Shown here: positions 10,642 through 47,442 of the stretch, piece after piece
How the letters are laid out: each line of letters begins with the position of its first letter
How positions within the stretch are numbered: the first letter of the stretch is position 1
Virus record (IMG/VR): IMGVR_UViG_3300032070_000001
Location: 12,183-76,182 of that record
Direction: 5' to 3' (one strand)
Source: a virus
Lineage: Duplodnaviria; Heunggongvirae; Uroviricota; Caudoviricetes
Length of the DNA: 64,000 nucleotides
Program-made: the position numbers and the translations under genes
The notes under the pieces: generated by a model
The model's database searches: none
The model's input: the letters and a program-made list of their open reading frames with translations, nothing else
What the model was told of the DNA's origin: nothing

Positions 10642-11460
10642 CTAAAAGAGTCCGTGTTCCACGGCCCGCAGCTTGCGTTGAAGACGTGCATACAGGTTAT
10701 GGGCCAGCATGTACATCGAGGTCACTGGCCAGTGAATCGCTTCTGCAATCTCTGTGTACGTGTACCGAGCTTCGCGCATCGCCATAAAGACACGCTCCTC
10801 GGGACACGCGATACAAGAGGCAATCAGATCGCGCACCTCCAATTCCTTCTCATACGCCGGTGTCTCAAAACGCTCGGGGATGTCGTTATACACCACTGGT
10901 GCGTTTATACTCTGGCCTTGGGCACGCGCACGGTATTTCGATGTGCGCGGCAAATGAATCGGAGTTTCGATTTCAATCAACTCACTCAACTCACGATTGA
11001 TCCACATACCGATGAAACCAGTAACACTCGTTTCATCTGTCTTTCGCGGCCTTGGCCCACTCTCAAGTTTCTTGACAGCGTTAACGAGACCAATGCAGCC
11101 GGCACTAACAAGATCGTCGCGTAGATACGCAACCCCCTGAAAGCAACGGATGAACGCCTCTACTTTTGAGAGAACAAAAGGCATGTTGCCAAGAATGATC
11201 TCTTCCCGCGCTGCTATGTCGCCGGCCTTGATGCGCTCATAAAGTACCGCATTCTTGGCCGCATCTAAGGACTGGCCCCTAGTCGCGCCACGCAAAGTTG
11301 TAATCAACACATCGTTGTACGAACTACTCACGGATGCCGGCCTCCATCGGGTCAATGCGCCAAGCACAGCGGGTATAAAAGCGATGAGCTTCACAAGCAA
11401 GGCGCGAATAGTCGTAGACAGGCCCATCAGGATCGAAGATGTGGCCGTGGTCGTAGGCAA
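10642..11460 (-). CDS. sigma-70-family (ECF-like, regions 2+4) RNA polymerase sigma factor
   Basis: Region 2-like VLYERIKAGDIAAREEIILGNMPFVLSKV and region 4 HTH FMAMREARYTYTEIAEAIHWPVTSMYMLAHNLYARLQ. The start is uncertain: ATG 11460, 11427, or GTG near 11310. Confidence 0.7.
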   Translation of the reverse strand: MPTTTATSSILMGLSTTIRALLVKLIAFIPAVLGALTRWRPASVSSSYNDVLITTLRGATRGQSLDAAKNAVLYERIKAGDIAAREEIILGNMPFVLSKVEAFIRCFQGVAYLRDDLVSAGCIGLVNAVKKLESGPRPRKTDETSVTGFIGMWINRELSELIEIETPIHLPRTSKYRARAQGQSINAPVVYNDIPERFETPAYEKELEVRDLIASCIACPEERVFMAMREARYTYTEIAEAIHWPVTSMYMLAHNLYARLQRKLRAVEHGLF

Positions 11461-26756: not shown

Positions 26757-27740
<984 letters not shown>

Positions 27741-27742
27741 AA

Positions 27743-27823
27743 CACCTATACAAGACTCCCAAAACTCGCGTTTTTTCCAAAATAGTCCGAAAAATCCCAG
27801 CTTTTGGGAGTCTTGTATAGGTG
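27743..27823. promoter_or_regulatory. 22-bp perfect inverted repeat (cacctatacaagactcccaaaa / RC) = two outward-facing copies of motif A in a divergent intergenic region
   Basis: Left arm 27743-27764, right arm 27802-27823, 37-bp spacer. Each arm is part of ctatacaagactcccaaaa-N6-(a/t)ttttt(c/g)(c/g)aa. A third copy is at 62478-62518. Confidence 0.5.
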
Positions 27824-27895: not shown

Positions 27896-30604
27896 TTGGC
27901 CTGCGACACTCAGACGCGGCCATATCGCTCTTGTAGGATGACTTCTGTGCCCAAAGCCAGCGAAGCCTTCCACGCCTTTCTCCGCGCTCGCAAAACGGCC
28001 GCCAATACCGATCTTGTAGCGCGCTGGTCCACCGAGATGGAGACCCAATTGAACGTCGCTGTCGGCGACGGAGAACCTGTGGCAGGCAAACGGACCACCT
28101 GGTCCGATGGCATCAACGAATGGTTCAACATCCGCATCCCCAAGAACGCTGCCACCGACCCTACGTGGAACGATTACGAATTGCGCTTTCCGCTCGACCT
28201 ACACGCCGAAGGCATCGGCATGACCGGCTGGCGCTGGACCACGAAGCGGTCCTGCTGGTGCGGTTTTGACTTCGACGCCATCACGAACCATGCCAAGGGC
28301 ATCGGCATCGACGACGACCAACTGGAGAGAGTCAAGCAGGCCGCCTGCGCCTTACCCTACGTCGAAGTCCGCAAGAGTACCGGGGGCGGAGGCATCCACC
28401 TCTACGTCTACTTTGCCGACGACGGCATTCCCACCGAGAACCACACCGAGCACGCCGCCCTGGCCCGCTGCATCCTGGGCATGATGTCCGGCGACACTGG
28501 TTTCGACTTCGCCTCGCAGATCGACGCTTGCGGCCACGTGATGTGGATTTGGCACCGGAAGATGACACCCGAGAACCAAGGGCTCGCCATCCTCAAGCCG
28601 GCCGAGAAGCATCTGGCTTTAGCCGACCTACCGCACAACTGGCGAGATCATATCGAAGTAGTCAAGCGCCGCCGCAACAAGGTCCGCATCAACCAGATTG
28701 CCGAAGATGACCAAGACCCCTTCGAGGCCCTAACCTCCAGCCGCAAGATCACTCCCCTCGACGACAGCCACAAGGCCCAGATCGAGGCCCTAATGCGCTC
28801 CGGCTATACCACGCTCTGGATTGCCGACCACCACTTGCTGCAAAGCCACACCAAGGCCATTCAGGACCTACTAGAAAGTCCCGAGGGCAAGGAATTGAAG
28901 CTGACCGGCATCTTCAAAACGCTCTCCGAAGGTAAGGACCCGGGCACCCCCAACTGCTTTCTCTTTCCGTTGCCAGAAGGCGCTTGGCGAGTCTACCGTT
29001 TCTCACCAGGAATCAACGAGGCCGATACCTGGACCCAGGACGGCCAGGGATGGACCACTTGTTACTTCAACCGCTGCCTCGACCTGAAGACCGCTTGCAC
29101 ACTGTTCGGTGGAATCGAAAAGGAGGAAGGCGGCTACATCTTCTCTTCAGCCGAAGACGCCATCAAGGCAGCCCGCAGCCTGGGGCAAGAACTCCAGATT
29201 GACGCCGCTCTCGCCGCCGACCGAAAGGTGACTCTCAAATCTCACAAGGACGGAAGACTCATCGTTGAGATCGAGCGCAAAAAGACTGACCCGTCGCTAC
29301 CCGGCTGGGACGAAAAACGAACCAAGTATGTCAGGATTTTTACCACCAAGGCGGGACCCGAAAACGAAGACGATTTCACCGAGTACGACGGAATCATCCG
29401 GGCCTTGGAGACCGCTGCCATCGAGCACGCCGGCTGGGTCGCCAAGAAGAGCAAGGAATGGGTACGACAGCCAGGCGGCAACATCAAGATGCTACTACAA
29501 AGCCTTGGCAACCCCAAGACAATTGCCGAGGAAATCATGGGAACCTCCATTGGCCGCGGCTGGCGACTGGTCAACCTTCCCTTCCGCGAAGAGTACCCGG
29601 GCGGCCGGCAATGGAACATCGACGCCCCACAATTCCGCTTTCAGCCAGCCGATCTGTCAGACGACGAGGCTCCGCGGCACCCGCACTGGGATTTGATCCT
29701 CGACCATATCGGCCTCGAACTCACGCCCGCTCTTCGAGACCTCACATGGGCGGCAGAAGACAACATCCGCACTGGTGCTGATTATCTTCGTCGCTGGATC
29801 GCCTGCTCCTTCCGTGATCCCTTTGAGCCAGCCCCCTACCTCTTCATGTTCGGCCCCGAGAATAGCGGGAAAAGCATTTTCTACGAGGCCCTGCAACTCC
29901 TCGTCACGAAGGGCGTGGTCAAAGCCGACCGGCCGCTCACCGGCCGTGACGGATTCAACGGCGAACTCGCGGGGGCGATCATCTGCGCGGTAGAAGAAGT
30001 GGACATCTCCAAATGCCCTGGGGCCCACGCCCGAATCAAAGAATGGGTCACCGGTCGTACCCTCTCAATCCGCAAGATGCGGCACGACAGTTTTGAGCAA
30101 CCGAACATGACCCACTGGGTCCATACAGCCAACTTCCGCCAGAACTGTCCAATCTTTCCCGGCGACACGCGCATCACCATGATCTACGTCCCCGATTTGC
30201 TGCCCGATCAAGAAATCGCCAAGCCAACACTCCTATTGAAATTGGAGGAAGAGGCCGCACACTTCATGCACACGTTGATGAGTCTTGACTTGCCGCCGTC
30301 ACGAGGACGTTTGCGGCTCCCGGTCGTAACGACTACTAGCAAACTCAACGCCGAGGAACTGAACCGAACAGCGTTAGAACGGTTCATTGAGACCTATTGT
30401 GAAAGAGCCCCAGAGCAGCACACCCTCTTTGGTGACTTTTACGACCGCTTTCAGCAGTGGCTTCCCGTCGAAGAAAAAGCCGCCTGGCCAAAGAACCGAG
30501 TCAGCAAAGACCTGCCAATTCGTCACGAAACCATCGCTGGCACAGGCAACAAGCGCTATGTCTCAAATCTCACCATGAAACCTGGAGAAGAGAACCATGA
30601 GTAA
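27896..30604 (+). CDS. primase-helicase (P4/D5-type: N-terminal primase-polymerase, C-terminal P-loop NTPase)
   Basis: Walker A FGPENSGKS in the C-terminal third. 902 aa. A start at M15 (27938) is possible. Confidence 0.8.
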   Translation: MACDTQTRPYRSCRMTSVPKASEAFHAFLRARKTAANTDLVARWSTEMETQLNVAVGDGEPVAGKRTTWSDGINEWFNIRIPKNAATDPTWNDYELRFPLDLHAEGIGMTGWRWTTKRSCWCGFDFDAITNHAKGIGIDDDQLERVKQAACALPYVEVRKSTGGGGIHLYVYFADDGIPTENHTEHAALARCILGMMSGDTGFDFASQIDACGHVMWIWHRKMTPENQGLAILKPAEKHLALADLPHNWRDHIEVVKRRRNKVRINQIAEDDQDPFEALTSSRKITPLDDSHKAQIEALMRSGYTTLWIADHHLLQSHTKAIQDLLESPEGKELKLTGIFKTLSEGKDPGTPNCFLFPLPEGAWRVYRFSPGINEADTWTQDGQGWTTCYFNRCLDLKTACTLFGGIEKEEGGYIFSSAEDAIKAARSLGQELQIDAALAADRKVTLKSHKDGRLIVEIERKKTDPSLPGWDEKRTKYVRIFTTKAGPENEDDFTEYDGIIRALETAAIEHAGWVAKKSKEWVRQPGGNIKMLLQSLGNPKTIAEEIMGTSIGRGWRLVNLPFREEYPGGRQWNIDAPQFRFQPADLSDDEAPRHPHWDLILDHIGLELTPALRDLTWAAEDNIRTGADYLRRWIACSFRDPFEPAPYLFMFGPENSGKSIFYEALQLLVTKGVVKADRPLTGRDGFNGELAGAIICAVEEVDISKCPGAHARIKEWVTGRTLSIRKMRHDSFEQPNMTHWVHTANFRQNCPIFPGDTRITMIYVPDLLPDQEIAKPTLLLKLEEEAAHFMHTLMSLDLPPSRGRLRLPVVTTTSKLNAEELNRTALERFIETYCERAPEQHTLFGDFYDRFQQWLPVEEKAAWPKNRVSKDLPIRHETIAGTGNKRYVSNLTMKPGEENHE

Positions 30605-31013
30605 GTACAGCATGAGCGACAGCGGCAAGCGACAGTCCTTCGGCAAGGGCATGGCGATGCGCGACGCCGCCGACGATAAGCCCCGCCCCGATCTGATCTC
30701 CCCGTTCGCCGAAGACCGTTTAGGCCACTGGCTCCGCATGGGAGCAGCGAAGTACGCCGAACGCAATTGGGAAGCAGGGATGCCATTCTCCCGCTGTATC
30801 GCCTCACTCAAGCGCCACGTAATGCGCTACCAGCAGGGCCTCCGTGAAGAAGATCATCTGGCAGCGATCCTCTTCAACGCAATGGCCTTGATTCATTACG
30901 AGGAGATGATCGAACGCGGCGTGCTACCAGCCGAACTCAACAACATGCCCCGCTACACCGCCCGTAAGCCGGCTCGCAAGACTCGCAAACTCCAAAGGAA
31001 GAACCGTGGCTGA
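30597..31013 (+). CDS. putative nucleotide pyrophosphohydrolase (MazG/dGTP-diphosphohydrolase-like), weak
   Basis: HWLRMGAAKYAERNWEAGMPFSRCIASLKRHVMRY...EDHLAAILFNAMALIHY. The assignment is by loose resemblance only. Confidence 0.45.
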   Translation: MSKYSMSDSGKRQSFGKGMAMRDAADDKPRPDLISPFAEDRLGHWLRMGAAKYAERNWEAGMPFSRCIASLKRHVMRYQQGLREEDHLAAILFNAMALIHYEEMIERGVLPAELNNMPRYTARKPARKTRKLQRKNRG

Positions 31014-31665
31014 ACCTGAATCTACAACCATCACCCAAGAAGCTCCAGGGCCGCTAGTCATTTACCCTGGTCTCGTTCAGCTAGCCGGCCACCTGCTCGC
31101 TGCAGTGGACCTAGAAACCACTGGCACTCGGCCAGGCTACCATGAGATCATTCAGATCGCAGTCTTGCCACTAGACTCCGACATCAAGCCTCTCGCAGGT
31201 GTGCGGCCGTTCTACACCCACATGCGGCCCAAACACCCGGAGCGGGAGTCGGTAGGAGCCAAGCACAAGCACAAGATTCCGATGACGGAATTGCTACTCC
31301 ACGCCCCGGAGGCCGAGCGGGTCGAGGACTGGTTCCGGGAGTGGGTCGAGAGGCTGCGCCTGCCCCTTCGGCGGGCCCTGGTGCCGCTGGCCCACAACTG
31401 GGCCTTCGAGTCGGCGTTCTTGAAGTCATGGCTGGGCGTGGCAGCCGTCGATGAACTCTTCCACAGCCACGCCCGCGACTCCATGCTCTACGCCATCGGC
31501 CTCAACGACAAGGCGGCCTTTGCAGGCGAACCCGTACATTTCACCTCAGTCGCCCTGGGGTCCATGTGCCGGAAGCTAAGCATCGTCAACACCAACCCCC
31601 ATGACGCCCTGGCCGACTGCATCGCCGAGGCCGAGGTGTATCGCACGTTGCTGAGGATGTTCTGA
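31006..31665 (+). CDS. DnaQ-like 3'-5' exonuclease (DEDDh)
   Basis: Exo I AVDLETTG, Exo II HNWAFE, Exo III HDALADC. The start is GTG. Confidence 0.8.
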   Translation: MAEPESTTITQEAPGPLVIYPGLVQLAGHLLAAVDLETTGTRPGYHEIIQIAVLPLDSDIKPLAGVRPFYTHMRPKHPERESVGAKHKHKIPMTELLLHAPEAERVEDWFREWVERLRLPLRRALVPLAHNWAFESAFLKSWLGVAAVDELFHSHARDSMLYAIGLNDKAAFAGEPVHFTSVALGSMCRKLSIVNTNPHDALADCIAEAEVYRTLLRMF

Positions 31666-32811: not shown

Positions 32812-33240
32812 CTACCACAGATTACGGGGACAGTGTTGAGTGGCCATCTTAATCTTGTTGAAGATCGCCGGCCCGTTAGCCGTGACTTTGCAGCCACAGC
32901 CCTGGCAACGTTGTTTGTTCACGTCGTACCATCGACATGGCGGCGACGAAGCACAGAAGGTCGCATGGAGACGAGCGACCTCCTCATCCGACCGCTCAGG
33001 TCGGCCTTGAGCAACCCATTCTACGGTAGCTTCAGCCCAAGTCAGTATCCGACGCGGTAGACTCGGAACCCGGGGTACAACCTCAACAACCGGTTGATAG
33101 TGAGGACATTGGAGGCACTGTTCCAAATTCACATTCTGCGTAAACTGACTTGCCGCCGGATTCGCGCACCGATAAATTACAATCTGTTCACCTAAATGGC
33201 GTTTATGAATCACGTTGCACCGCTTACACAATGCAATCAT
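32812..33240 (-). CDS. Cys-rich (zinc-finger-like) protein
   Basis: CKRCN, CLQCPHY and CQGCGC clusters in 142 aa. Confidence 0.5.
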   Translation of the reverse strand: MIALCKRCNVIHKRHLGEQIVIYRCANPAASQFTQNVNLEQCLQCPHYQPVVEVVPRVPSLPRRILTWAEATVEWVAQGRPERSDEEVARLHATFCASSPPCRWYDVNKQRCQGCGCKVTANGPAIFNKIKMATQHCPRNLW

Positions 33241-33250
33241 CCTCTTTCTC

Positions 33251-36200
33251 CTACATCAAAGTCGGCCTGCTCACCCTGTAGTTCTCACCTTTGTTAGGTT
33301 TCATCTGGTCCCCTGGCACCGTTTCACAAGGAGCAGCCTTCGGATCGGAATCGGGATGTGCGACAGGTCCACTAACTATACTCGGAAATGTCTCCAAATA
33401 ATGACCCCAAATAACGGGGCCAAAAGGACATTTATAAATATGTTGTTGCACTGCTTCACGCATGTGGTATGCGAATTCTAAGGCACTAAATAAGTCAGTA
33501 AATGTCTGACACCACGACGTATAGTTAGAGGTACAAACCAAACCAGTGCAGCCCGCCCCGCACGTCGAAAATCCATCGCCACATTTACCACTGCAACCCT
33601 TATTCGTTGTCAGAACCGTTAGATAGCCTACAGTTACCTCATAAAGGCAACCACCATTATACACACTCTCCCCGCATATTTTTCGCGGCTTTTTATCCTG
33701 ATCCTTTTTACCGCCTGCACCTGCGTCCATTTTAGATTGCATGGCGTCACGATTTGCCTTCTCTGCTTTCTTCAAAGCTTCAAAAACAGGGTCGCGCTCT
33801 TCGACGTAGGCGTCATCCGTCGTTGGGCAGAAACACGTTTCCAGCACGTCGTCCAAATCGGACGGATGCGAATCACCAGCGGTCAAGACCAGTTTAGGTT
33901 GCCCGTCGTCCGGAGCCACTGCATACAGAAGATGCCCTTCAGGCGGAGCCACCGTGAAGTTGTAGCCCAAACCTGCCGTCCGCTCCTCGGCCGTGGGAAA
34001 GATCGTCCCAGCCGGAATCAAGGCAGGCCAGGCATGAATATAGGGTGCCATCTCGCCCGCGCGAATTGGCGTCCAACACGTAAAGTCGATCTGCTGATTC
34101 CCCACGTCATACTTTGCGGCCGTAATCACCGCCTTAGTCGAGGCCACGCCAGGCAAGTCCAGCGTCACACAGTCAAATACCTCTAAGGCTAAGTGCTTCA
34201 GCGGCGTACTGAACTCCACGATCTTCCAGGCATTGGCGTCCCGAATAGCCCAAAAAGTTGCACTCTTCAACACATTGTCGAAGATGTTCAACGTGTAGTA
34301 ATCATGGGTCTTTTCCCGCGTCCCGTACTTGGCGACGTTATGCTTGAGAACGATCTTCAAGTCGCCCTCCGACTCACTCCGTTTCCAGGTGACAACATGC
34401 TTCGTGGCCAGTTCATCAGTGCTCGACAAACTCACCCGAAGCGTATTGACAAGCACATCGCCGACAGCAATCGTCGCCAACGAATCCGGCTCTTCCGAGA
34501 AATACTTCAAGTACACCACGTCGTTGCGGACGTAGACCACGCAGCGGCTCTGGACGGCGATGTCCGCGATCAATTCCATCACGTTCTTGCGCGCCAGAAG
34601 GGCGAAGTTCGCCGGGTACTTCGTCAGCATCGTCCGCACATGGGCGAACGAGGCGCTGTCAATGCTCAACGACGTGTACTTGCCGATCAGCCAGGTGATG
34701 ATGTCCACCGGGTTCGGCCCCACGGATGAGGTGACCGTGACGTAGAGGTCGTCCGACCACTTCGACGGCTCCACGTGCTTGGTCCCGTCCGGGTTCGTGA
34801 CCACCTCGGATCGCTGACTGAGCGGCTTAGCCATGCCGATCTCAGTCACCGTGTACCCGTCGTAGTCTGTCTCGTAGATCGTGTAATACGCTGCCGGCAC
34901 CGTCATCAGCTTCAACCCGAAGGCCGTCTGCTTCATGGCCGCCACGCGCGTGATGGTACAAGGCAGCAGGTTGACGATGAAGAGGACCTCCACCTCGGAC
35001 TCCAGGAAGACCTTACTCCCCGCCCGGGCCCAGAAGAATGAGGCAGTAGGCATATCGTCATACGCCTTCCGTGATTCCACCGGCCCGCCTACTGTCTGCA
35101 ACTTTTGACAACGTTGAATCTCAGCATTGCAATAGTCAGCAATCTCTTGAGGATTGGCGGTAAGCGTACTCTCCTCGTACCATGCCGTACCTGCCTCGGT
35201 AGCCGTCCAAGCACAGCCGCCGCGCGTAGCCTTCACTTGGAAACTACGGTCGTCAATCAAACGGCAGGTCCCCGGCGAATTGACGGCATAGTCCGGATGC
35301 TCGCGGCCCACAATCGTGAACACGTCGCCACTGAAGGTCCCTGTAAACTTACCCCCTTCGATATTCAACACCAGGCGCTCGCCTTGTGGAAACAAGGTGC
35401 TTGCGCCCTGAATCGTCAAGATGGGATGCTCGTATGCCTGTTGTTGCTCCAACTGGTAGATCAAGTCGCAGATGATGAAATACCGATCCTCGACGCACGA
35501 CTGATCGGGACCCCAGTTCTGCTCCTTAGTCACATCGAAGGTCCAGACCATCTGTTCATCCTCACTACCCTCGACACCTGGTATCACGGTACTTTCCGGC
35601 GTCACAGCCTGTGTCTCACCCAGCGGGACATTCGGACACTGAATATATCTTGCCTGACAGATACGGGACTCCAAGGTATAGTCGTGAATCCCTTCGCCGG
35701 TTTGCAGAATCCCGAACCGCGGGGCCCGAACCTGGACCGCTTTCACATCGCAGACCGAGCCGAATACCAGAGGCCACGCCTTGCCCAACGCATCAGGCGG
35801 GACCACCGGGAAGTCCCCCTCCTCCATCGAGAACCCGGCTTCCACGTCCTCGATGCGCGCGGTCACGTCGAAGCTGACAGTGCGGTCGCCCTCGTTCCAT
35901 GTGAACGGGCTGTTGATCTCCCCTTTGAACAAGAGGAATTTGTCGGATAGACTAAGACCCTCGAACCATTGGTAGACCCACACCGGCCGCTTGTGTAGAT
36001 CGTGCTGGTCACAAAGAGCCTTGATTGCCCCATCCGTATCGTCCAGAACCAGACGCATCTGGCTTGAATCTGTGTTACCTTCGACCGTGACCGTGGCGTC
36101 GATGCTGCCAACCTCAACAAGTTGACCAAGCACGACATTGGTGATCTTGCGGTCGGCGTACATACAGACGCCGCCGCCAGGCACCCATTGAATCTCCACA

Positions 36201-36265
36201 ATCAGAACTGATTCCGTACCGCAATTCTGAGCGAGTTTTGCCCCTGCTGATCCGACACTGCGCAT
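33251..36265 (-). CDS. large tail fibre / host-specificity-type tail protein (1004 aa)
   Basis: Terminal gene of the tail block downstream of the tape measure. Cys-rich C-terminal knob (CSGKCGDGFSTCGAGCTGLVC). Confidence 0.65.
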   Translation of the reverse strand: MRSVGSAGAKLAQNCGTESVLIVEIQWVPGGGVCMYADRKITNVVLGQLVEVGSIDATVTVEGNTDSSQMRLVLDDTDGAIKALCDQHDLHKRPVWVYQWFEGLSLSDKFLLFKGEINSPFTWNEGDRTVSFDVTARIEDVEAGFSMEEGDFPVVPPDALGKAWPLVFGSVCDVKAVQVRAPRFGILQTGEGIHDYTLESRICQARYIQCPNVPLGETQAVTPESTVIPGVEGSEDEQMVWTFDVTKEQNWGPDQSCVEDRYFIICDLIYQLEQQQAYEHPILTIQGASTLFPQGERLVLNIEGGKFTGTFSGDVFTIVGREHPDYAVNSPGTCRLIDDRSFQVKATRGGCAWTATEAGTAWYEESTLTANPQEIADYCNAEIQRCQKLQTVGGPVESRKAYDDMPTASFFWARAGSKVFLESEVEVLFIVNLLPCTITRVAAMKQTAFGLKLMTVPAAYYTIYETDYDGYTVTEIGMAKPLSQRSEVVTNPDGTKHVEPSKWSDDLYVTVTSSVGPNPVDIITWLIGKYTSLSIDSASFAHVRTMLTKYPANFALLARKNVMELIADIAVQSRCVVYVRNDVVYLKYFSEEPDSLATIAVGDVLVNTLRVSLSSTDELATKHVVTWKRSESEGDLKIVLKHNVAKYGTREKTHDYYTLNIFDNVLKSATFWAIRDANAWKIVEFSTPLKHLALEVFDCVTLDLPGVASTKAVITAAKYDVGNQQIDFTCWTPIRAGEMAPYIHAWPALIPAGTIFPTAEERTAGLGYNFTVAPPEGHLLYAVAPDDGQPKLVLTAGDSHPSDLDDVLETCFCPTTDDAYVEERDPVFEALKKAEKANRDAMQSKMDAGAGGKKDQDKKPRKICGESVYNGGCLYEVTVGYLTVLTTNKGCSGKCGDGFSTCGAGCTGLVCTSNYTSWCQTFTDLFSALEFAYHMREAVQQHIYKCPFGPVIWGHYLETFPSIVSGPVAHPDSDPKAAPCETVPGDQMKPNKGENYRVSRPTLM

Positions 36266-36678
36266 CAGAATTTTCCTCCCTCGAATTCCACGGTCACGAC
36301 CTGGAGTTCACCACGGGACATCGGCGCAATCGCCGGCGCGGCCCGTTCTGGTGTGTCAAACTCTAATGGATCACCGATGAAGTTCCCAACCCACACTTGG
36401 CCCTGATGATCCACCACCCGAATCCGCGAGGCGAAGTAGGATTGAAAGAACGCTCGTAGTTCCAGGGCCTTGTTGCGCGTCATGTTGAAGGTCCACTGCA
36501 CTTTACGCCGACCGCCATGACGCTGGACGTACACGTACCGCGTCCCATCCATCGCCCGCTTCTGAACCAGCGTGTCCACCAGAGCCTCTTGGTCCGAAAA
36601 CTGGGGATCGGGCAGGAGCGTCGTAGTCTGCACCAACGGATAGGGGGCTTGGAACTGAAACATGATTACGGCTCCCAA
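36265..36678 (-). CDS. tail/baseplate assembly protein (hypothetical)
   Basis: 137 aa. ATG overlaps the downstream stop. Confidence 0.5.
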   Translation of the reverse strand: MGAVIMFQFQAPYPLVQTTTLLPDPQFSDQEALVDTLVQKRAMDGTRYVYVQRHGGRRKVQWTFNMTRNKALELRAFFQSYFASRIRVVDHQGQVWVGNFIGDPLEFDTPERAAPAIAPMSRGELQVVTVEFEGGKF

Positions 36679-37778
36679 TCAGGGTCCAATTCTCCCTCGA
36701 ACTCGAAGTTCGCCGTGAACCGTCCCGCGGAATCCTCGACAACGGGATCAGTCGTTGTAGTCACGATGCCCTGCCAATACCGCGATTCCCAGTCGATCAA
36801 GCCAATCTCTTGCCCAAGATGTGCTGCCAAGAATGTCAATAACGCCAACCCCTCGTCGCGCGCGAGGCCCGAGAAACTCAAAACGAGGACTTGACTCTTC
36901 GGCCAGATCGGATCGGCATAGACCACCAGCGTTCCGCCTCGGGTCTCCCGGTTGATCCGGGTGAATTGCAGCCGATCCTTGTTGCCCAGATTCGGCGCAC
37001 GCAAGGTGCAAGAATCCGTGATCTCTCCCGTCGCCGGGTAAACCAGTTGAAACCGGACGCCGATTTCCGGGTGGGGCAGTACGAGTGTGTTAGCCGGTGG
37101 GTCCGGGGCCTCCACGGCTCCATCTCCGACGAATGGCGCGTACTGACGGTCGAACCGCCGCCCGGCGATCCAGCACGTACACGCCTGACGAAAGCCGAGG
37201 TCTTCCGTAATAGTGCGTGCATAGACACCACCCGCACTCACTGTCTGCACCAAGTCCAAAGATTCCCGGACACTTCCACCTTTGCCAACGCTGATCGTCT
37301 GAACGAGCGTCAATGCGTCATTGACGATCCCCGTCTTTCGGCGTACCCCTTCTTCCGTGAATGTAAGCACCTGGTTAACGGTGACAGGAATCGTGCGCCC
37401 AAAACGCTCTTGGAAATCAAGCACGTCCTGAACCGTAACGTGCGTCACGGCCCGATGCCCATCCACCGATTCCGCAAGACCCAAGGTATGCTGAATCGTA
37501 ATGTAGATGGGACCGTGAACCTCGACGGATTCCACAAGGCCCAAAGAATCGCTGACCGGCCGACCTAGTATCTTTCCAACCGTAACGGAATCTATTAGTT
37601 CAAGAACATCCGTCACGACCTCCGCGAAACACTCAGTAAGAATCTCCACGTATTGTCGTGTGATGCGCGTCGCACCAAGGCCCGCCGCCAAGACCTCGAC
37701 CTGTTGACGGGTGACGCGCGCCAAGCCGTCGCCTGCCGCCAGCACTTCGGTCTGTTGACGAGTCGCGCGCAACACCAT
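36666..37778 (-). CDS. tail/baseplate structural protein with N-terminal ~15-aa tandem repeats
   Basis: TRQQTEVLAAGDGLARV / TRQQVEVLAAGLGATRI / TRQYVEIL, encoded by 45-bp tandem repeats at 37645-37778. Confidence 0.55.
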   Translation of the reverse strand: MVLRATRQQTEVLAAGDGLARVTRQQVEVLAAGLGATRITRQYVEILTECFAEVVTDVLELIDSVTVGKILGRPVSDSLGLVESVEVHGPIYITIQHTLGLAESVDGHRAVTHVTVQDVLDFQERFGRTIPVTVNQVLTFTEEGVRRKTGIVNDALTLVQTISVGKGGSVRESLDLVQTVSAGGVYARTITEDLGFRQACTCWIAGRRFDRQYAPFVGDGAVEAPDPPANTLVLPHPEIGVRFQLVYPATGEITDSCTLRAPNLGNKDRLQFTRINRETRGGTLVVYADPIWPKSQVLVLSFSGLARDEGLALLTFLAAHLGQEIGLIDWESRYWQGIVTTTTDPVVEDSAGRFTANFEFEGELDPDWEP

Positions 37779-37779
37779 A

Positions 37780-39171
37780 CTAGCCGACCCTCACCCCAAA
37801 CTGGGCAGTATTGATACTATTTACCGCCCACACCGCCGCCGCCACAATACCCTGCACCGTCTGTGTGATTGTAACTGTCGTGCTGCCTCCGACGAGATTC
37901 GTTCCGTCACCGGTCATCAGAGTCACATCAGTGGACCCTAAGAAACCCGTAAACTCAACCACCCAATCCGTTCCAGGACCAGGACCACCCGTGACAGCAA
38001 CATCACCGACCTCGATATTAGACAATGCCTCCAAGGCGCTCTTCACGGTGGCGGCATCGGCGTTGTAGGCAATCGCGGCCGTCGTCTGTCCAGAGTACGT
38101 CAGCGTGAAGGTGCCGCTGGAACTGGCGTCATCAATAGCAACGGTCTGCTGCTCATTCGTGCCCGACGCCGGATCAATCGCATTTACCTGGCGCAATGAT
38201 TTATACGTTGTTGAACTAACCACTTCACCAGCATTCTGCAACCGCGTAGATCCCGACTTGATGACAGTCTTCAACGTAAAGTCCTCGGCATCCGTCTCGC
38301 GAGCATGGGTATTGATCTGAATTCCTGCAATGGCTCCCAGCCCCGAGACCGCCTCATAATCCCACAAGTCGGTGTGATTTGCAGTCGAAGACTCCACGTA
38401 GTCCGTGTCATTGTTGATCGGATTCTCGTCTACGAGAGCATAATGATCGACGCCGGTGCTCGGCGTAAAATCCGTATAGCCAGTGACATCCCCAATCGGG
38501 AAGATCGTGACAACCTTCTGGTTGCCAAGAAAATCGTTGTTCACCGACCCCGAGCCATCCAAGCAATAGAAATCATCCACCATGTGCGCCAACGAGACAG
38601 CGGCGATCTCCCCGATACGAAACGCTGTATGATAATCGTGAGTTCCAGCCTTTGTATTCTCCGAAGGATCGGACAATTTGTTCACTCCGTTGATACGCAC
38701 CTCGTAACTGCCACTAGAACCGCACACGACTTTGAACTCGACGTAATACCAACCGCCGACCGTCAATCCTGCGCCACTCGTTGTCGCCAGAAGAGTGCTG
38801 CCACGATAAACAGCGATCTCGCCAGCCGGCGTGACACGGATATTCATGCCCAAGGTATTCTCATCCATAAAAGCCAGTAAGGTCCCAGTGTTTGGCCATG
38901 ATGGATACTTGACAGCGATGCCCACAACCATCGTGGCATTCGTTGTCAGTGGTGGACTCGTCAAATACTGGGCAGAGGTGCCAAATTCCAGACAATAACC
39001 GCCCAATCGGCCGGCTTCAACATCGAATGAACTCTCAAACGTCACGACGATATACTTACGTGCCAACACGCCAGTCGGAGCCGGCGCACTGCCCGGCGTC
39101 GTTCCGTAAGCATCGAAACCGTCAATCCATAAGAGTGCCATCGCCACACCGCCTTTAGCCACTAAGACCAT
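37780..39171 (-). CDS. tail fibre / receptor-binding-like protein with C-terminal Ig-like module
   Basis: The N-terminal jelly-roll-like domain is only a guess. The C-terminal ~95-aa module [32 protein letters not shown]...VTGGPGPGTDWVVEF is shared at the nucleotide level with 53586..54497. Confidence 0.55.
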   Translation of the reverse strand: MVLVAKGGVAMALLWIDGFDAYGTTPGSAPAPTGVLARKYIVVTFESSFDVEAGRLGGYCLEFGTSAQYLTSPPLTTNATMVVGIAVKYPSWPNTGTLLAFMDENTLGMNIRVTPAGEIAVYRGSTLLATTSGAGLTVGGWYYVEFKVVCGSSGSYEVRINGVNKLSDPSENTKAGTHDYHTAFRIGEIAAVSLAHMVDDFYCLDGSGSVNNDFLGNQKVVTIFPIGDVTGYTDFTPSTGVDHYALVDENPINNDTDYVESSTANHTDLWDYEAVSGLGAIAGIQINTHARETDAEDFTLKTVIKSGSTRLQNAGEVVSSTTYKSLRQVNAIDPASGTNEQQTVAIDDASSSGTFTLTYSGQTTAAIAYNADAATVKSALEALSNIEVGDVAVTGGPGPGTDWVVEFTGFLGSTDVTLMTGDGTNLVGGSTTVTITQTVQGIVAAAVWAVNSINTAQFGVRVG

Positions 39172-39712
39172 AGGTGATCTTCAACACGTCGTCGTCGATG
39201 ACTGGAATCGTCGAGGAAAAAGCGGCTGACGACCACAAAGTCCCCGTCGTGCCACCTTTTGAAGCCGCTCCTGTGCCACCACAGATGAACAATCCCTTGA
39301 CTGTCAAGGTATCGCTAATCGTAAAGTCAGCGGTAACGGCGTTGGTAATCGCCCGCCCCGCCGCCGTGCCTGCTGTCCATTGCGGCCGATTAGCCCCATC
39401 GTAATTCGTCGTTTCGACCCAGCCAGCATGGCTCGACATAATATCGGCATTATTGAATGCCGAGAACCCAGCGTTGTTCACGAGGCCGATGTACCAAGTG
39501 GTAATCGGCGTACCAGCGTGAAACTCTGTCTCCAAGATGTGATTCAAACCCACATCAACGATTCCGTTGGGCACGTCAAACTCCGCCAGCAACTTACCAG
39601 CACGAAAATGCTGCACCTTAAAACACCCAACCGGCCGGAAGGTGTCCCCCACCGCCCGCGGCCTATCACAACGGTACTCGCAGACTTCGCGCAAAGACAC
39701 ACTATCCTGCAT
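39155..39712 (-). CDS. distal tail structural protein (hypothetical)
   Basis: 185 aa, directly after the tape measure protein. Confidence 0.5.
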   Translation of the reverse strand: MQDSVSLREVCEYRCDRPRAVGDTFRPVGCFKVQHFRAGKLLAEFDVPNGIVDVGLNHILETEFHAGTPITTWYIGLVNNAGFSAFNNADIMSSHAGWVETTNYDGANRPQWTAGTAAGRAITNAVTADFTISDTLTVKGLFICGGTGAASKGGTTGTLWSSAAFSSTIPVIDDDVLKITYGLSG

Positions 39713-39735
39713 GATATGCCCCTTCCAGAAAGAAT

Positions 39736-42700
39736 TTAGAACACACTGACCCCGCGCCGAAGTTCCCGTTTTAGGGACTTGATAACTTCGCGTGCGGTCT
39801 GACGAGGCTCGACAGCCTCATTGATGTGAATGTCACCCACCGTGACGTTGGCAACCTGACCTCCCTGCGAACGAAAACTCGGCGCGATGCCCGCGTTCAT
39901 GGCCACAAGCTGACTGTACCAGCGCCTTGTGGCCTGCGCGCTCATCACGAACTCGTTGGGCGCAAGCATAGCAGGCACCATGTCTACGCCGCGAGGGGCA
40001 AAACCACCCCGATCAAAATGCCGAACGGCACCGCCGGCAACAAAGTCGAAGAAGTCCTCCAGTCCGGTGATATCCATCGAAGGAACGTCACCGTCACCGC
40101 CACCGCCACCCGAAGCCGCCGAAGCCGCAGCCGCCGAAGCCGCTGCCGCCCCCTTAGCAGCAACCCGTACATCGCGCCAATAATCAACCAACCGGCGAAC
40201 CGCGTCACCGGTGCCATTCACCGCCCGCGTCTGATCGCCAATGACATCAACAGTATCCGCTGCAATCTCCTCGCCCGCCTTTGCTGCTGTCGTTGTACTC
40301 CTCTCGGCTGTCGTCTTCTGTCCAAGCGCTTGAATCTCGCCCTGAATCGCATCCAGTTCAATCTTGCTCGGCTGTCCTTTCCCGACTTCCACCTCAGCCT
40401 GCTGCTTCTTGAGCAACTCGAAGCGCTTTAGCACCGCGTCACCCATTGTCGAGAGTTCCTCAGTGACCCGAGCCGCCGCGAACCGACCGAATGCCGAGCT
40501 TGCCGCCTTGTCGGCGACACTAAACAGCACGTCAAGCTGCCGCATGTCCTCGGTCGTAATCTTTTCAGCCTCATTCAGCCGTTTAAGCAGCGTGAAGGTG
40601 GCCTCAAGATGCTGTTCCGCCTCCTTCTGAATGCGTTCGGCTGCACCACCCGGCCGATTTGAAGTGTCAAATCTTTCCTGCATCCACTTGTCAAAGGCTC
40701 CCTGCCCGGCCCGTTGATTAGCCTCCAAATCCCTTTGATTCTGCGACTGCTGCAATCCGCGCACTGTAGCACCCGCCAACTTCTTCTCATAGGCGTCTAC
40801 CACTTTCGTAAGGCCATCGGCCAGAAGATCGAGACCCGTAACCTGTTCAATCTTCGCAATCACGGGGGCTTCGAGCCGTATCGCCTTGATACCGGCCTGT
40901 AATTGCTCATTTAGTCTGGCAATCGCCTCGGGAGCGGCTACAAGAGTTTGGATGCTTACGCCCGTCAACTGCCGTTCCAATTCCCGACGCATCGACGCAA
41001 AAGCCCGTGTATCCCCCATGAACGTCTTAGCAAAATCCTCTTTGCCGAATTTTTTCAAGTCGGCAGCGAACTTCTCAATCAAGCCCCCGGACTTTGCCAA
41101 ATCCGCTTCCAACTCCCCGCTCGTCTTCCGCCGCAAATTTCCTTCAGCATCCTTGGCCACCACGCTTAACGTTGCTTCAATGGCCTCGCGTTGCCGCTCT
41201 AACTCAGCATTATGACGCTCGGCCTGGAAGGCACGAGCCTCCAAGTCCTGAGAAAGCTTCTGTTGCAAGAGTGCCTGCGCCTGCAGGGACCCTATGCGCC
41301 GCCCGTCTATCTCATCAAGAAGCGCAAGGGCTTGTCGCTGGAGATTCACATCCTCTGTCTGCCTAGCAAGCTGCTCCGCTTGCTTCGCCAGCCCATCGGC
41401 GCGCCGCCAAGCTGAATCAGCCATCTTCTGCTGGTCAGCATCCTTCGCCCCCGCCTGGATGCTAGCCGCTTGATCCGCAAGTTTTTTGGCCCTCGCGGCG
41501 ACGGCGCGAAATTGCGCCTCTGGATCGTTAAAGCGCTGGATGCTCGTCTGAAATGCCCGATCAGCAATCTCGGCCTGAATTCCGGCAATCTCCCCCGGAA
41601 TCTCCGCGGCCTTCTTTGCCGCCGTCTCAGAGGCCGCAAACAGTTCACTGGTCATTTTCTGGCGCGACTGCATGATGCGGTCAAGCGCCAACTTGGCGAC
41701 CTTCTCCTCGATAGTGATAGCCGCTTTGAAGTTGTCGGCGTCCTGGAAATAGATTTTCTGAGCATCAGCCAAATAACGCCGTAGACCGCGTACAATCTCC
41801 TCGTTCTTCCGATCAGCCTCCCGAATAGCGGCAGCCGTCTTTTCCTGATTAGCTTTGATGTCCAGGTCACGCTCTTCCCGCAATGCAGTCTGCGCAGCTC
41901 CCGCCCGCTGCCCGAGCCAATTGCCGAGCAACTGGCCGAACGACTGAGCAAGTGGGATTCCAACAATTGCGAGCAAGCCCGCGCGCACACCCGTGATAGC
42001 GGTTCCCGCCAACGCAGCCTGCATCTTCATGGCCGCAAAAGCTAAGCCAACTAACCCAAGGCCCGCCGCACTCGCTACCACCGAGCCAAGTTGCCCGACA
42101 ACGATTCGCAAAACAGGCACCAGACCACCGGATCCACCAAGGGCATCAACGATTCCAAGAATCGAATGCACGGCATCCCGCCCAAATTCCGTCTTGAAAT
42201 AGTTGCTAATGCGATTGAGTTCGGCCGTCAATCGCTCGGCATCAGTCGAAGTAAACTCCGTGACCTTCTTGCGCAAAGTGTCCACGTCCACTTGACGCAG
42301 TTTGTCCATCGCCTCCTTGTATTTCTCCGCACCGCTACCTGCCAATCGCAAGGCACCCGGCAGAGCACGGGTGTTCGGAAACAACTTCGCGATGGAATTA
42401 GCTGCACCGTCTGTCGTGCTAATGACTTGCTGCAAAGCCCCTTGGAAGCCCCACGTCTGAACCGCAGCCTGCCCGGACTCAACCCTAAGACTCTGGAACG
42501 CCGCTTTCATACCATCCGAAGGCTTCAGAAGTGCCGCCATCATGCTGCGCAGTTGTGTAGCGGCCTCACTCGCCTTCACACCGCCAATCGTAATGGCAAT
42601 CAAAGACGCATCCAGTTCCTCCATGCTCAATCCAAGTTCATGCGCAATACCCTGAGTCCGACTCAAAGCGGCCCCCAACTCCTCCGTCCGCAGCCGGCCT

Positions 42701-43602
42701 AAGTCAATCGTGAGGTTGAACTGCGCCGCGCGCAACCCCGCCATATCCGACGACTCACCGTAGGCATTCAATGCCCCGGTCAACAGTTGCACGGATGCAG
42801 ATAGGTCTTGAACCGTGACCTTGGCTAACATATTAGCGGCCATAAGAATGTTCGCCCGATCTGCTGCCGTGACGAACTGGTCAGAAAGCGTCTGATACTG
42901 GGCCTCTGCCACACGCGAAAGAGGCTGATTGAAGGCATCCGACAATTTCCGAACATCGTCTGCAATCGCACCGAACGTGCGGCTTGGATCAAGCGCCCGA
43001 ATCTCACCGATACGCTTTGAAAAATCCAGAAAACCGCCAATGGCTTCTTTGATACCATCGCGCAAGGCACTTATTGTGCGAACAATCGCCTGAGTCACGA
43101 CCACCCTGGTCAGCGTCTCCCAACTAATCGCGAATCCCTGGGCTGCTTTCCCGGCATCGTCAAGCTTCTGACGCGCCTGTTCAAGCGCCCGCGTATGCGT
43201 GTCCTGACTAATCGCGCCTTTCTGATTCAACGCATCGAGGCGGGCGACTTGAGTAGTGTACTGCTCCAGCGGAGTGCGCGTCTGGTCAAAGATGTGAGCC
43301 GCCTCCTGAGCATCCTTTGACATCTTCGCCGCACCGCTCGCGCCAACGCCTGCACCCGCACCTGCGCCTGATACATTGGCGCTTCCCAATTTGTTTAGCG
43401 AAGCCAAGGTCGCATCCGCTTGGGCAGCCATCTGCTTCAACGCTGACACGACGCTTCCGGCCTCTTTGTTGAAAGAGTCGAAACGGGAGGTAATAGTCGT
43501 CAGTTGCGATCCAAAGGAATTGAACGCCTTATCCAGGCGCGCTAACTCATCAAGCGCCTGGGTGGCATTGAACTCAAGGCTTTGGCGAATGTCGTCAGGC
43601 AT
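39736..43602 (-). CDS. tail tape measure protein
   Basis: 1288 aa, dominated by coiled-coil/Ala-rich segments, and placed after the frameshifted chaperone pair. Confidence 0.8.
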   Translation of the reverse strand: MPDDIRQSLEFNATQALDELARLDKAFNSFGSQLTTITSRFDSFNKEAGSVVSALKQMAAQADATLASLNKLGSANVSGAGAGAGVGASGAAKMSKDAQEAAHIFDQTRTPLEQYTTQVARLDALNQKGAISQDTHTRALEQARQKLDDAGKAAQGFAISWETLTRVVVTQAIVRTISALRDGIKEAIGGFLDFSKRIGEIRALDPSRTFGAIADDVRKLSDAFNQPLSRVAEAQYQTLSDQFVTAADRANILMAANMLAKVTVQDLSASVQLLTGALNAYGESSDMAGLRAAQFNLTIDLGRLRTEELGAALSRTQGIAHELGLSMEELDASLIAITIGGVKASEAATQLRSMMAALLKPSDGMKAAFQSLRVESGQAAVQTWGFQGALQQVISTTDGAANSIAKLFPNTRALPGALRLAGSGAEKYKEAMDKLRQVDVDTLRKKVTEFTSTDAERLTAELNRISNYFKTEFGRDAVHSILGIVDALGGSGGLVPVLRIVVGQLGSVVASAAGLGLVGLAFAAMKMQAALAGTAITGVRAGLLAIVGIPLAQSFGQLLGNWLGQRAGAAQTALREERDLDIKANQEKTAAAIREADRKNEEIVRGLRRYLADAQKIYFQDADNFKAAITIEEKVAKLALDRIMQSRQKMTSELFAASETAAKKAAEIPGEIAGIQAEIADRAFQTSIQRFNDPEAQFRAVAARAKKLADQAASIQAGAKDADQQKMADSAWRRADGLAKQAEQLARQTEDVNLQRQALALLDEIDGRRIGSLQAQALLQQKLSQDLEARAFQAERHNAELERQREAIEATLSVVAKDAEGNLRRKTSGELEADLAKSGGLIEKFAADLKKFGKEDFAKTFMGDTRAFASMRRELERQLTGVSIQTLVAAPEAIARLNEQLQAGIKAIRLEAPVIAKIEQVTGLDLLADGLTKVVDAYEKKLAGATVRGLQQSQNQRDLEANQRAGQGAFDKWMQERFDTSNRPGGAAERIQKEAEQHLEATFTLLKRLNEAEKITTEDMRQLDVLFSVADKAASSAFGRFAAARVTEELSTMGDAVLKRFELLKKQQAEVEVGKGQPSKIELDAIQGEIQALGQKTTAERSTTTAAKAGEEIAADTVDVIGDQTRAVNGTGDAVRRLVDYWRDVRVAAKGAAAASAAAASAASGGGGGDGDVPSMDITGLEDFFDFVAGGAVRHFDRGGFAPRGVDMVPAMLAPNEFVMSAQATRRWYSQLVAMNAGIAPSFRSQGGQVANVTVGDIHINEAVEPRQTAREVIKSLKRELRRGVSVF

Positions 43603-43614
43603 CCCGTAACCTCG

Positions 43615-44139
43615 CTATCCTGCACGCACGATTGTCGTAGTCAAAATGGCATCCCAACCCGGCAACTGAACCTTGGCGGCCACCTCTTCAAAAGCTCTAG
43701 CACCCGCTTCCTGGAAGTGATAGGGACCTGGATTCGTCAGATGAAAATACGGCAGGCCAGTGTGAGGATTGATGAAGGTATTAGCGTTGTAATACTCATT
43801 GATGATGAGATGCGGCAGCATCGTGCTGTAGATGAAGCGATAAAGGCCGGGTATCTCCCCCGCTGTCCACGTTCCCGTACCGTTGGCGATCCCCAAGTCA
43901 ATTCGATTTGGGGCCCCAACCGCAGGCGTACACGACAAGACGAAGTTCACATAACTCGCCAGAGGTGAGAATGTGGCCCGCGATGCCCCGCTCCACACTG
44001 GCACGAGATCGACGGCCGTGGCTTGAAGCCATTGTCGCGTGGCATCCGTCAAGGCCGTCACGAGCCGCTCATGAAGAGCGGCTCGAAAACGATTCCAATC
44101 GACCCGTGGAACTTGAAACACCGCGGACAGCCGCATCAT
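43615..44139 (-). CDS. hypothetical protein between the GT chaperone and the tape measure
   Basis: The start is taken at the ATGATG (44134-44139) that follows the TAA of the -1 frame. The tabulated start at 44196 would overlap the T extension. Confidence 0.45.
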   Translation of the reverse strand: MMRLSAVFQVPRVDWNRFRAALHERLVTALTDATRQWLQATAVDLVPVWSGASRATFSPLASYVNFVLSCTPAVGAPNRIDLGIANGTGTWTAGEIPGLYRFIYSTMLPHLIINEYYNANTFINPHTGLPYFHLTNPGPYHFQEAGARAFEEVAAKVQLPGWDAILTTTIVRAG

Positions 44140-44343
44140 TACCTCATTAGGGCAAACGCACCCCTGCCAAGGCCGCCGCCGCAATCTCCTCGTCATGGCT
44201 CATTGTCTGATCGAACGCCACGATCAAGGCTTGCGTAAAGACACCGCAGTCGTCCCAGCTTGATGGTACATCCGGCGGCCGAATACCCAGCCGAACACAC
44301 GCCTTCCAGATGGCGAACTCCCCTGTGCGGTATTCCGGCCAGA

Positions 44344-44814
44344 CTACGTGGTTGGTCCCTGCGGCGGACCTTGTAGAAAAAACGACCGCGCCTTCTGGAG
44401 TTTAGCCTCATCAAGGCAATTGGCCTCGAAGACCAACGCCAGGATTCGGTTGCACTCAACCTGAGACAACCCGCCGGCCTTTAAGTCGGCCTCCCAGTTG
44501 ATCCAGGTCGCGGGATTTTCCAACTTCACGGTGTCCCATTCGATCTGGCTCGGTTCCAAAGAGTGGACAACCATGTACGCCAACCGCCGCTTGTTGTACT
44601 CGGTCAGGACACTCTTGTAGCCAGCATCCTCGGTATCCGGCACCCAACCATCCTTGGTCAGTTTGCCTGGAGGAGCCGGTTCGGGGCTGAGACTCTTGAA
44701 CTCCTCCATGTTCTCCAATCCGCGGGCGCGAATGACGATCCGCTGATCGCCGCGCGGCAGAACAAGCACTTCCTCCGCCGGTAAGGATTTCGGGTCGATT
44801 CCACCGATTTTCAT
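44344..44814 (-). CDS. tail assembly chaperone (G-like); a -1 frameshift would extend it to 44147 (GT-like)
   Basis: 156-aa acidic protein upstream of the tape measure. The -1 frame opens 6 codons before a T6 slippery run, has no start codon, and reads VVWPEYRTGEFAIWKACVRLGIRPPDVPSSWDDCGVFTQALIVAFDQTMSHDEEIAAAALAGVRLP, ending at TAA 44147-44149. Confidence 0.6.
   Translation of the reverse strand: MKIGGIDPKSLPAEEVLVLPRGDQRIVIRARGLENMEEFKSLSPEPAPPGKLTKDGWVPDTEDAGYKSVLTEYNKRRLAYMVVHSLEPSQIEWDTVKLENPATWINWEADLKAGGLSQVECNRILALVFEANCLDEAKLQKARSFFLQGPPQGPTT
44374..44383 (-). promoter_or_regulatory. candidate -1 programmed ribosomal frameshift site (G TTT TTT C)
   Basis: cgg tcg ttt ttt cta. The alternative frame is stop-delimited 18 nt upstream. 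Confidence 0.45.
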
Positions 44815-44948
44815 GTTGGTTCTCTTGTTGAAGCTCTTGTTAAAGGAAAAGAAAGAGACGGTGCCGGCAGCACTGCCGGCACCGCTTGACTGACCATGTA
44901 GACCAGCCTAACCGGCCTCAAGGCCGGGGAGTCGTCTTACGAGTAGTG

Positions 44949-46067: not shown

Positions 46068-46071
46068 AGGG

Positions 46072-46578
46072 TCAGTCTTCAGTCAACTCCATCATGTACC
46101 GAGCGTCCACTTCCGTTTGTTTGATCTTGTCCACTAGGGCAATTTGCCCGAAATTCAAGACCCGCACTAACGAGTTGCGCCCCGGCCTCGGTACGAGGCA
46201 ACCAAGAAAGTGCTGCGTTGTCGGATCGCCTTCAACGTAATCCCCCGGCTCCGAGCCGAAATTCCATACCCCAATCGGCAAATCCATCGCCGCCTGAAAT
46301 GCCCCGGCGTGCTTCAGAATGCTGTAGGCATCCGATCCATCGTAACGGCTCGTCAGGAGGACGTTGACATCGACGAATACCTGCCAATAACCTCGACTCA
46401 ACTCCTGAATGAACGGCCCCGTGATACGAATCTCCGCCCGGTCACTAGCTTGCATGAAGGCTTCCGTCCGCTCATCCAAATGTTCAACTAGTACGGGAAG
46501 CTGCCGCTCTGTTGCCACCGATTTTAGGTAATCAGCCACCGAGGCAAATATCCAACGGGCCCAGTCCTTTAGTGCCAT
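46072..46578 (-). CDS. head-tail joining / tail completion protein (hypothetical)
   Basis: 168 aa between the capsid and major tail genes. Confidence 0.5.
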   Translation of the reverse strand: MALKDWARWIFASVADYLKSVATERQLPVLVEHLDERTEAFMQASDRAEIRITGPFIQELSRGYWQVFVDVNVLLTSRYDGSDAYSILKHAGAFQAAMDLPIGVWNFGSEPGDYVEGDPTTQHFLGCLVPRPGRNSLVRVLNFGQIALVDKIKQTEVDARYMMELTED

Positions 46579-46581
46579 GAC

Positions 46582-47088: not shown

Positions 47089-47101
47089 AGCAGCACGCCA
47101 A

Positions 47102-47422: not shown

Positions 47423-47442
47423 AAACTGGGTTAAGAAAGGTC

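Follow-up and report, generated by a model that had tools for sequence, protein, structure and literature searches.

Three directional promoter-like elements in a phage genome and their candidate reader, a divergent phage-encoded sigma factor

The principle of a phage sigma factor with promoters of its own is not new and goes back to SPO1 and T4. In T4, gp55 is a phage sigma that sends the host core RNA polymerase to phage promoters. Promoters of the sigma-70 family have their two boxes 17 bp apart, and those of ECF (group 4) factors take the form GGAAC-N16/17-CGTC and show positive autoregulation. Repeated sites near a ParB-family gene, in promoter regions, are characteristic of ParB/KorB operators and of the centromeres of N15-type plasmid-prophages. 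To our knowledge, almost nothing is known about transcription in Planctomycetes and their viruses. In SPO1, a phage sigma redirects the host core polymerase to phage-specific promoters (PMC13401047), and in phiEco32 the divergent phage sigma gp36 serves a handful of promoters (PMC12276001).

Here we analyse three copies of a short element in a 64,000-nucleotide stretch of phage-type DNA (the window, which is part of a 102-kb ENA contig). We consider it probable that they are the cognate promoters of a sigma factor encoded by the phage itself, whose gene lies inside one of the units that they would drive. As in SPO1 (gp28, gp33/34) and T4 (gp55), a phage sigma-family protein occurs together with what appear to be phage-specific promoters unlike the host consensus. 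The locus differs from both in its protein family, which best matches SigF/SigG-type models at scores well below their cut-offs, in having three putative promoters per genome, of one type for replication and virion genes, in the placement of the sigma gene inside its own unit, and in its probable hosts, Planctomycetota. The middle/late promoters of phiEco32 (AATGTA centred at -11.5) loosely resemble the (A/T)TGT(A/G)TA found here, but for gp36 promoters one consensus element is given instead of two boxes 17 bp apart, TGTATA would fall downstream of the -10-like hexamer in the geometry proposed below, and gp36 has no detectable homology to the present sigma family (hhalign probability 0.6%). 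The likeness to ECF systems comprises a G(G)AAA box, a 17-bp spacer, a GTC-containing downstream element and a sigma gene apparently under its own promoter type; however, the protein has 229 aa with a region 3.0-like segment and does best with group 3 sporulation-type models, the AAC motif is not conserved, and no anti-sigma partner was identified. Finally, the repeated sites lie beside a ParB-family gene and in promoter regions, as in ParB/KorB and N15 systems, but they are asymmetric and directional, no ParA accompanies them, and the ParB helix-turn-helix does not track their variable core.

Position and number of the element copies

The window has ~57% G+C and almost all of its genes on the minus strand, the plus strand being used only in two short islands, one at 27896-31665 and one of two small genes at 62.6-63.4 kb. 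The main features are as follows.

27743..27823, both strands: back-to-back promoter-like pair between the ParB-like gene and the primase gene, with 22-bp outer arms perfectly inverted
27743..27779, minus: element PL, facing the ParB-like gene (geometry from relatives)
27787..27823, plus: element PR, facing the primase gene (geometry from relatives)
62476..62513, minus: element P3, the solitary third copy (profile match and relatives L077, L078, L081, L083)
26757..27740, minus: ParB-like gene (N-terminal domain and helix-turn-helix), first in a leftward replication/DNA-metabolism unit
27896..31665, plus: three-gene island of a primase/helicase (DUF5906), a dATP/dGTP diphosphohydrolase-like protein and an RNase T-type exonuclease
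32812..62460, minus: P3-led unit, whose first gene encodes a 186-aa protein without assigned function
62633-63175, plus: gene for a 180-aa protein, divergent from copy 3
10642..11331, minus: divergent sigma-70-family protein of 229 aa (P0001), the proposed reader, inside the PL-led unit

The elements sit exactly at the strand switches, with PL pointing to ParB and the replication genes, PR to the primase island, and P3 to the terminase-to-tail block. From 27.7 kb down, the leftward unit encodes the ParB-like protein, a methyltransferase, an SNF2 helicase, an exonuclease, a second ParB, PolA, the sigma and a ligase, and it also holds several HNH genes. The P3-led unit, whose layout was drawn partly from the gene table of a relative (L084), contains HNH, thioredoxin, large terminase, portal, major head, major tail, tape measure and distal tail genes, those from terminase to tail running on the minus strand from 58 kb down to 32 kb.

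The gene content has several other peculiarities. The ParB-like protein ends in a poly-Asp tail (26757-26800), the minus-strand ORF at 17569-18072 is mostly a run of Asp/Glu codons (a GAC/GTC tandem repeat), and a tRNA-Asn (GTT) lies within the replication unit (17437-17520, minus). The load of homing-type nucleases is unusually high, with four HNH ORFs, one of which has an AP2 domain, and an endonuclease VII (2360-3421, 6382-6891, 8336-8887, 8900-9406 and 60644-61252). In the virion module, a 431-aa protein with seven 129-144-nt (~44-aa) repeats adjoins a collagen-like tail-fibre protein with 18- and 27-nt tandem repeats (51329-52624 / 52637-53620), and the head module holds an 82-nt direct repeat, 90% identical, with its copies 824 nt apart (49959-50040 / 50783-50864). 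The left flank carries a TnpB / IS605 OrfB-type gene (L161 18720-19592, same contig). No integrase was seen in the flanks, all of whose genes are co-directional with the window's minus-strand genes.

A first-pass annotation of the window had described a head-to-head pair at 27743-27823 and a further copy at 62478-62518, and both descriptions hold. One arm of the pair reads CACCTATACAAGACTCCCAAAA (27743-27764); the other (27802-27823) is its exact reverse complement, at 22 of 22 positions and across a spacer of 37 bp. A repeat search stretches the pair to 35-nt arms at 86% (27743-27777 / 27789-27823), and it also ties the primase-side copy to the one at 62.5 kb. The third copy, for which we use the limits 62476-62513, shows one substitution and one inserted base (TAGTATAAGG versus TTGTATAGG). 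Across the window, an 18-mer with ≤3 mismatches was observed 3 times against an expected 0.04, and a gapped pattern 3 times against an expected 0.06. A nhmmer profile made from 40 related elements recovered the three copies with E values of 4e-11, 1e-10 and 7.5e-8, the next match being at E = 0.7. No fourth copy was found by the profile in the window or in 8.4 kb of right and 7.5 kb of left flank, so the search for more copies that the annotation had proposed ended at three in ~80 kb of the contig. An Rfam scan of the window returned a tRNA only and matched no structured-RNA family at the elements.

Two details of that annotation needed amendment. In the primase-side copy, the distal half, ATTTTTCGGA, departs by one base from the proposed (c/g)(c/g)aa. 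The placement of the copies 10-25 nt before a start codon applies to copy 3 only (~18 nt) and to neither gene of the pair, since the ParB ATG (27740) lies 2 nt beyond its element and at least 72 nt separate the other element from the primase start (27896 TTG or 27938 ATG). The spacer and T-tract of the primase-side copy could also form a small hairpin (27795-27809, TCCCA-GCTTT-TGGGA), which the other copies lack and which is probably a product of chance.

Anatomy of the elements and conservation in relatives

A protein search with the primase gave 76 viral loci and 20 loci in bacterial MAGs. The MAGs are Planctomycetota in all but one case (Thermoguttaceae, Pirellulales, Planctomycetaceae), and several of these loci are inside contigs of 0.4-2.6 Mb (L086, L087, L090, L091, L103), from which it appears that some members of the family are integrated. 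This suggests that the phage family is temperate and has Planctomycetota as its host range. Two of the MAG loci carry the element pair, on Planctomycetota contigs of 0.48 and 1.07 Mb. There are no close DNA relatives among deposited phages, and the primase has one distant protein match only among them, in a Pseudomonas phage.

The divergent pair upstream of the primase is kept in 22 distinct related genomes. Counted from the first G of GGTG (+1), the positions in these genomes show the following pattern.

-33 to -27: conserved box [T/C][G/T]G[A/G]AAA
-26 to -18: unconstrained, the two copies within one genome agreeing at 14-50% of positions
-17 to -15: TTT, nearly invariant
-14 to -5: 0.6-1.6 bits, varying between genomes; the two copies are identical in 22/22 genomes
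-4, -2, -1 and +1 to +4: invariant on ParB-side copies (T.TAGGTG), with A or G at -3

More distant relatives have the same architecture with other sequences and an arm-to-arm spacer of 34-89 bp. Gene conversion was considered as the cause of arm identity and rejected, since identity stops sharply at -17 and the next 9 bp differ within a genome.

The solitary third copy shares the genome-specific core as well, both in the window and in L083, whose contig also carries the L008 pair. A divergent lineage shows the same: TTGGCCGATATTGTA and the box ATGCAGG occur both in the L017 pair and at the third-copy loci L079/L080, and a single metagenome yielded the contigs of L017 and L080. When the whole collection was scanned with a pattern, a 94-kb contig was found to hold both a pair and a single copy, and other long contigs to hold pairs; the pattern in its copy-3 form had no exact match among viral contigs. 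A solitary copy with the same core excludes a pure stem-loop explanation, and three sites that change together in each genome point to a reader encoded by that same genome.

Each copy can be divided into the same parts.

PL, minus: -35-like box TGGAAA (27779-27774), 17-bp spacer (27773-27757) ending in TTTTGGGA, hexamer GTCTTG (27756-27751), TATA (27750-27747), GGTG (27746-27743); predicted start site ~27745-27743
PR, plus: box CCGAAA (27787-27792), 17-bp spacer (27793-27809), hexamer GTCTTG (27810-27815), TATA (27816-27819), GGTG (27820-27823); predicted start site ~27821-27823
P3, minus: box TGGAAA (62513-62508), 17-bp spacer (62507-62491), hexamer GTCTAG (62490-62485), TATAAG (62484-62479), GTG (62478-62476), followed by the ribosome-binding site GAGGAG (62476-62471) and ATG 62460

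In four relatives (L077, L078, L081 and L083), this element stands upstream of a gene homologous to the P3-led gene. In the shared layout, a -35-like box (TGGAAA / CTGAAA) is followed at exactly 17 bp by a genome-specific hexamer and then by an invariant T(A/G)TAGGTG. The distance from box to hexamer is the same for the three copies of the window and for all lineages inspected, even where the box has another sequence.

Window: TGGAAA-N17-GTCTTG
L008: CTGAAA-N17-GTCTTT
L017: TGCAGG-N17-GATATT
L028: TAGCCA-N17-ATTGGT
L015: TTGAAC-N17-GTTAGG

The L001-type promoter combines a GGGAAA box with a GGCAGTCTTG core, the L008-type has the CTGAAA box, and the hexamer GATATT of the L017 lineage resembles a canonical -10. 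By their sequence, the elements have two boxes within the ~16-18 bp distance expected of sigma-70-family promoters. In the window and the relatives alike, every pair and every third copy lies upstream of genes and is oriented towards them. The earlier idea that these elements are promoters is thus supported by their position, their orientation and an arrangement that is conserved in relatives.

Which part of the element would serve as -10 had, we think, been misjudged. The first-pass annotation took TGTATAGG as an extended -10; this motif gave no sigma-70-type match in a consensus scan, the conserved upstream box would then sit 21 bp away, and copy-3 transcripts would begin inside their ribosome-binding site. 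What lies 17 bp from the upstream box is the hexamer GTCTTG, and TATAGG is between this hexamer and the predicted start site. A start 6-8 nt past the hexamer would fall within GGTG and keep the GAGGAG of copy 3 inside the mRNA. The scan, with the E. coli-type consensus, found no site at any element. A housekeeping sigma-70 promoter (TTGACA-N17-TATAAT, with a standard or extended -10) would have a -10 hexamer with A at position 2 and T at position 6, placed 16-18 bp from a TTGACA-like box; it is not supported, given the hexamer GTCTTG and the 21-bp spacer that TATAGG needs. TGTATA as -10, by analogy with phiEco32, was rejected on account of spacing, the copy-3 ribosome-binding site and absent homology.

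The ParB start codon is 2-9 nt from the conserved GGTG (window 27738-27746; L001, L006 and L012 near 5830-5860). Because the GTG of GGTG is in frame with ParB in L001, L006 and L012, the ParB mRNA may have little or no leader.

The sigma-family protein and its co-variation with the elements

The proposed reader is encoded by an ORF (10642-11331) identical to the database protein P0001, 16 kb from the pair and within the leftward unit. It matches PHROG 351 with E = 5e-6. Against the PDB, the single sequence finds SigA/SigF/RpoS at 6e-5 and a 17-member family profile finds SigF at 6e-11, with a second stretch aligned to region 4 that is individually non-significant (5.6 bits). NCBIfam sigma models are matched by 17/17 family members, TIGR02937 over its full length, and scores far below the curated cut-offs point to a divergent subfamily; in Pfam, the ORF scanned alone reaches E = 0.022. 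Although a single-sequence search of viral contigs gave no match, a search with the family alignment placed the sigma gene on 33 viral contigs, 21 of which also have the primase pair. No other RNA polymerase gene was seen in the window and its 16-kb flanks. Judging from these matches, the genome that carries the elements also has a sigma-family gene, as cognate promoters of a phage sigma would demand.

We compared sigma and promoter sequences in 12-16 linked pairs, a sample in which many comparisons were made and kinship was ignored, and ranked sigma columns by a shuffle-corrected score over 12 pairs. The four columns that track the -35 box best are residues 207, 208, 203 and 192, all of them in region 4.2. 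The hexamer block is tracked best at residues 96, 106, 130, 109, 117 and 113, in region 2.3-3.0, and 7 of its best eight columns are within residues 95-130. The unconstrained spacer tracks no sigma column.

The associations can be followed down to residue classes. Arg/Lys at position 4 of the helix (residue 203) with Gln/Arg at position 8 goes with GGGAAA, including in the distant L023, and Val/Leu with Thr-Tyr or Thr-His goes with CTGAAA; by alignment to SigF/sigma-70, positions 4 and 8 would correspond to those of R584 and R588. In the hexamer block, F.GMW accompanies GTCT(T/A)(G/T) and C.G(A/T)W accompanies GT(C/T)ATG, and residues 129/130 (the positions of E458/T459) follow the base at -12. 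Closely related sigmas can belong to different classes: L006/L008, L036/L009 and L021/L023 are 71%, 73% and 65% identical in their N-terminal parts, and the members of each pair differ in both helix class and box class, so that the switches appear independent of overall sigma relatedness. The L014 sigma is a mosaic, and its promoter follows the segment concerned. The window's own sigma is an exception, with Val at the helix position, since elsewhere G at -32 goes with Arg or Lys. In this small sample, where kinship is ignored, the pattern is suggestive of a promoter specificity that tracks the DNA-contact residues of the sigma.

In the mechanism that we propose, host core RNA polymerase carrying the phage sigma (10642-11331, minus) would read PL, PR and P3. 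Region 4.2 of the sigma would contact the upstream box (TGGAAA in the window), and regions 3.0/2.4/2.3 would contact the T-tract and the genome-specific hexamer 17 bp downstream (TTTTGGGA-GTCTTG), with transcription starting ~6-8 nt past the hexamer, within GGTG. The invariant T(A/G)TAGGTG would serve as discriminator/start region or as an additional site bound by a conserved factor; T.TAGGTG is the most conserved block, in a place where sigma factors usually read little, and something else may therefore bind there. PL and PR, with only 7 bp between their boxes, would fire outward to drive both replication units, and P3 would drive the packaging and virion genes.

With the sigma gene in the PL unit, any sigma already made would stimulate the production of more, and the circuit would be self-reinforcing; since the gene lies 16 kb downstream in a unit that would itself require the sigma, a separate first trigger would be needed. 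Next to P3, a TATAAAT (62606-62612) lies in a G+C-rich spacer ~20 nt upstream of ATG 62633, the start of the divergent 180-aa gene. This sequence could act as a host-type promoter that drives a small regulator, which is a candidate for the first trigger or for a repressor.

Other readings, and what the elements may mean

The elements might instead be read by a host sigma, housekeeping or alternative/ECF, of Planctomycetes, with the phage sigma serving another purpose. The box-N17-hexamer geometry would suit any sigma-70-family factor, GGAAA...GTC is reminiscent of ECF-type promoters, and the problem of a sigma gene downstream of its own promoter would not arise. Nevertheless, the hexamer block differs from phage to phage and is the same at three sites in each genome, which a conserved host sigma would not require, and its changes track the DNA-contact regions of the phage sigma. 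With the elements also lacking an E. coli-type sigma-70 match, we regard a host reader as unlikely.

A little less likely still is that the elements are operators for a phage regulator of the three units, whether this is the ParB-like protein encoded beside the pair, the second ParB or the 180-aa protein. The pair adjoins a gene whose product is a genuine ParB-type protein with a helix-turn-helix, ParB repressors of the KorB type are known, and the invariant T(A/G)TAGGTG(T)C outdoes the putative -35 and -10 boxes in conservation, as a shared operator would. However, single copies are non-palindromic, their orientation always follows the gene, and the 17-bp two-box geometry would be left unexplained. 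No ParA was found beside ParB or anywhere else in the window, and neither Pfam nor PHROG gave a match for the genes downstream of ParB. Furthermore, the helix-turn-helix segments of L001 and L003 are identical and their cores differ at -12, -8, -7 and -3, which argues that ParB is not the reader of the variable part, although it may bind the invariant block. The ParB or partition-site function that the first-pass annotation had entertained is not supported as a mechanism of specificity, on account of the asymmetric single copies, the lack of ParA and the L001/L003 mismatch.

A replication origin or cruciform site next to the primase, with arms complementary for the sake of structure, seems improbable. 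It would fit the perfect 22-bp inverted repeat, the A/T tracts in the spacer, the adjacent replication genes and the predicted fold of the pair as single-stranded DNA (-25.1 kcal/mol, z = -9.5), but the third copy keeps the genome-specific sequence with no inverted partner, the distance between arms ranges widely among relatives (34 to 89 bp), and the boxes inside the supposed loop are conserved and directional. Promoters of a phage single-subunit, T7-like RNA polymerase are very improbable, for although a contiguous block of ~23 bp ending in TATA-GG recalls the T7 class layout, no such polymerase is present among the window ORFs or in the gene tables of the 16-kb flanks, and an upstream box at a fixed 17 bp is no T7-type feature.

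Recognition by the phage-encoded sigma is thus the reading that we favour, and it would provide a concrete, testable promoter-sigma pair for Planctomycetes. A literature search on sigma factors of Planctomycetes phages gave nothing relevant, and for a system of this sort the phage family, the promoter and the host phylum are undescribed in the sources searched. The regulatory design would be very compact, with three promoters, one of which feeds the sigma gene. The relatives amount to a natural experiment in sigma specificity, in which more than 12 variant promoter cores are matched by variant sigmas and the changes map to the sigma-70 positions that contact the -35 and -10 elements; this could be of use for promoter-recognition studies and as a source of orthogonal expression parts.

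A broader picture, which we put forward tentatively, is that this family of Planctomycetes (pro)phages may use three promoters of its own sigma, in a self-reinforcing manner, for essentially the entire programme of replication and virion genes, and that two modules, region 4.2 together with the -35 box and region 2.3-3.0 together with the -10 block, may have co-evolved and recombined separately. If this is true, the family would constitute a natural series of mutually orthogonal sigma-promoter pairs.
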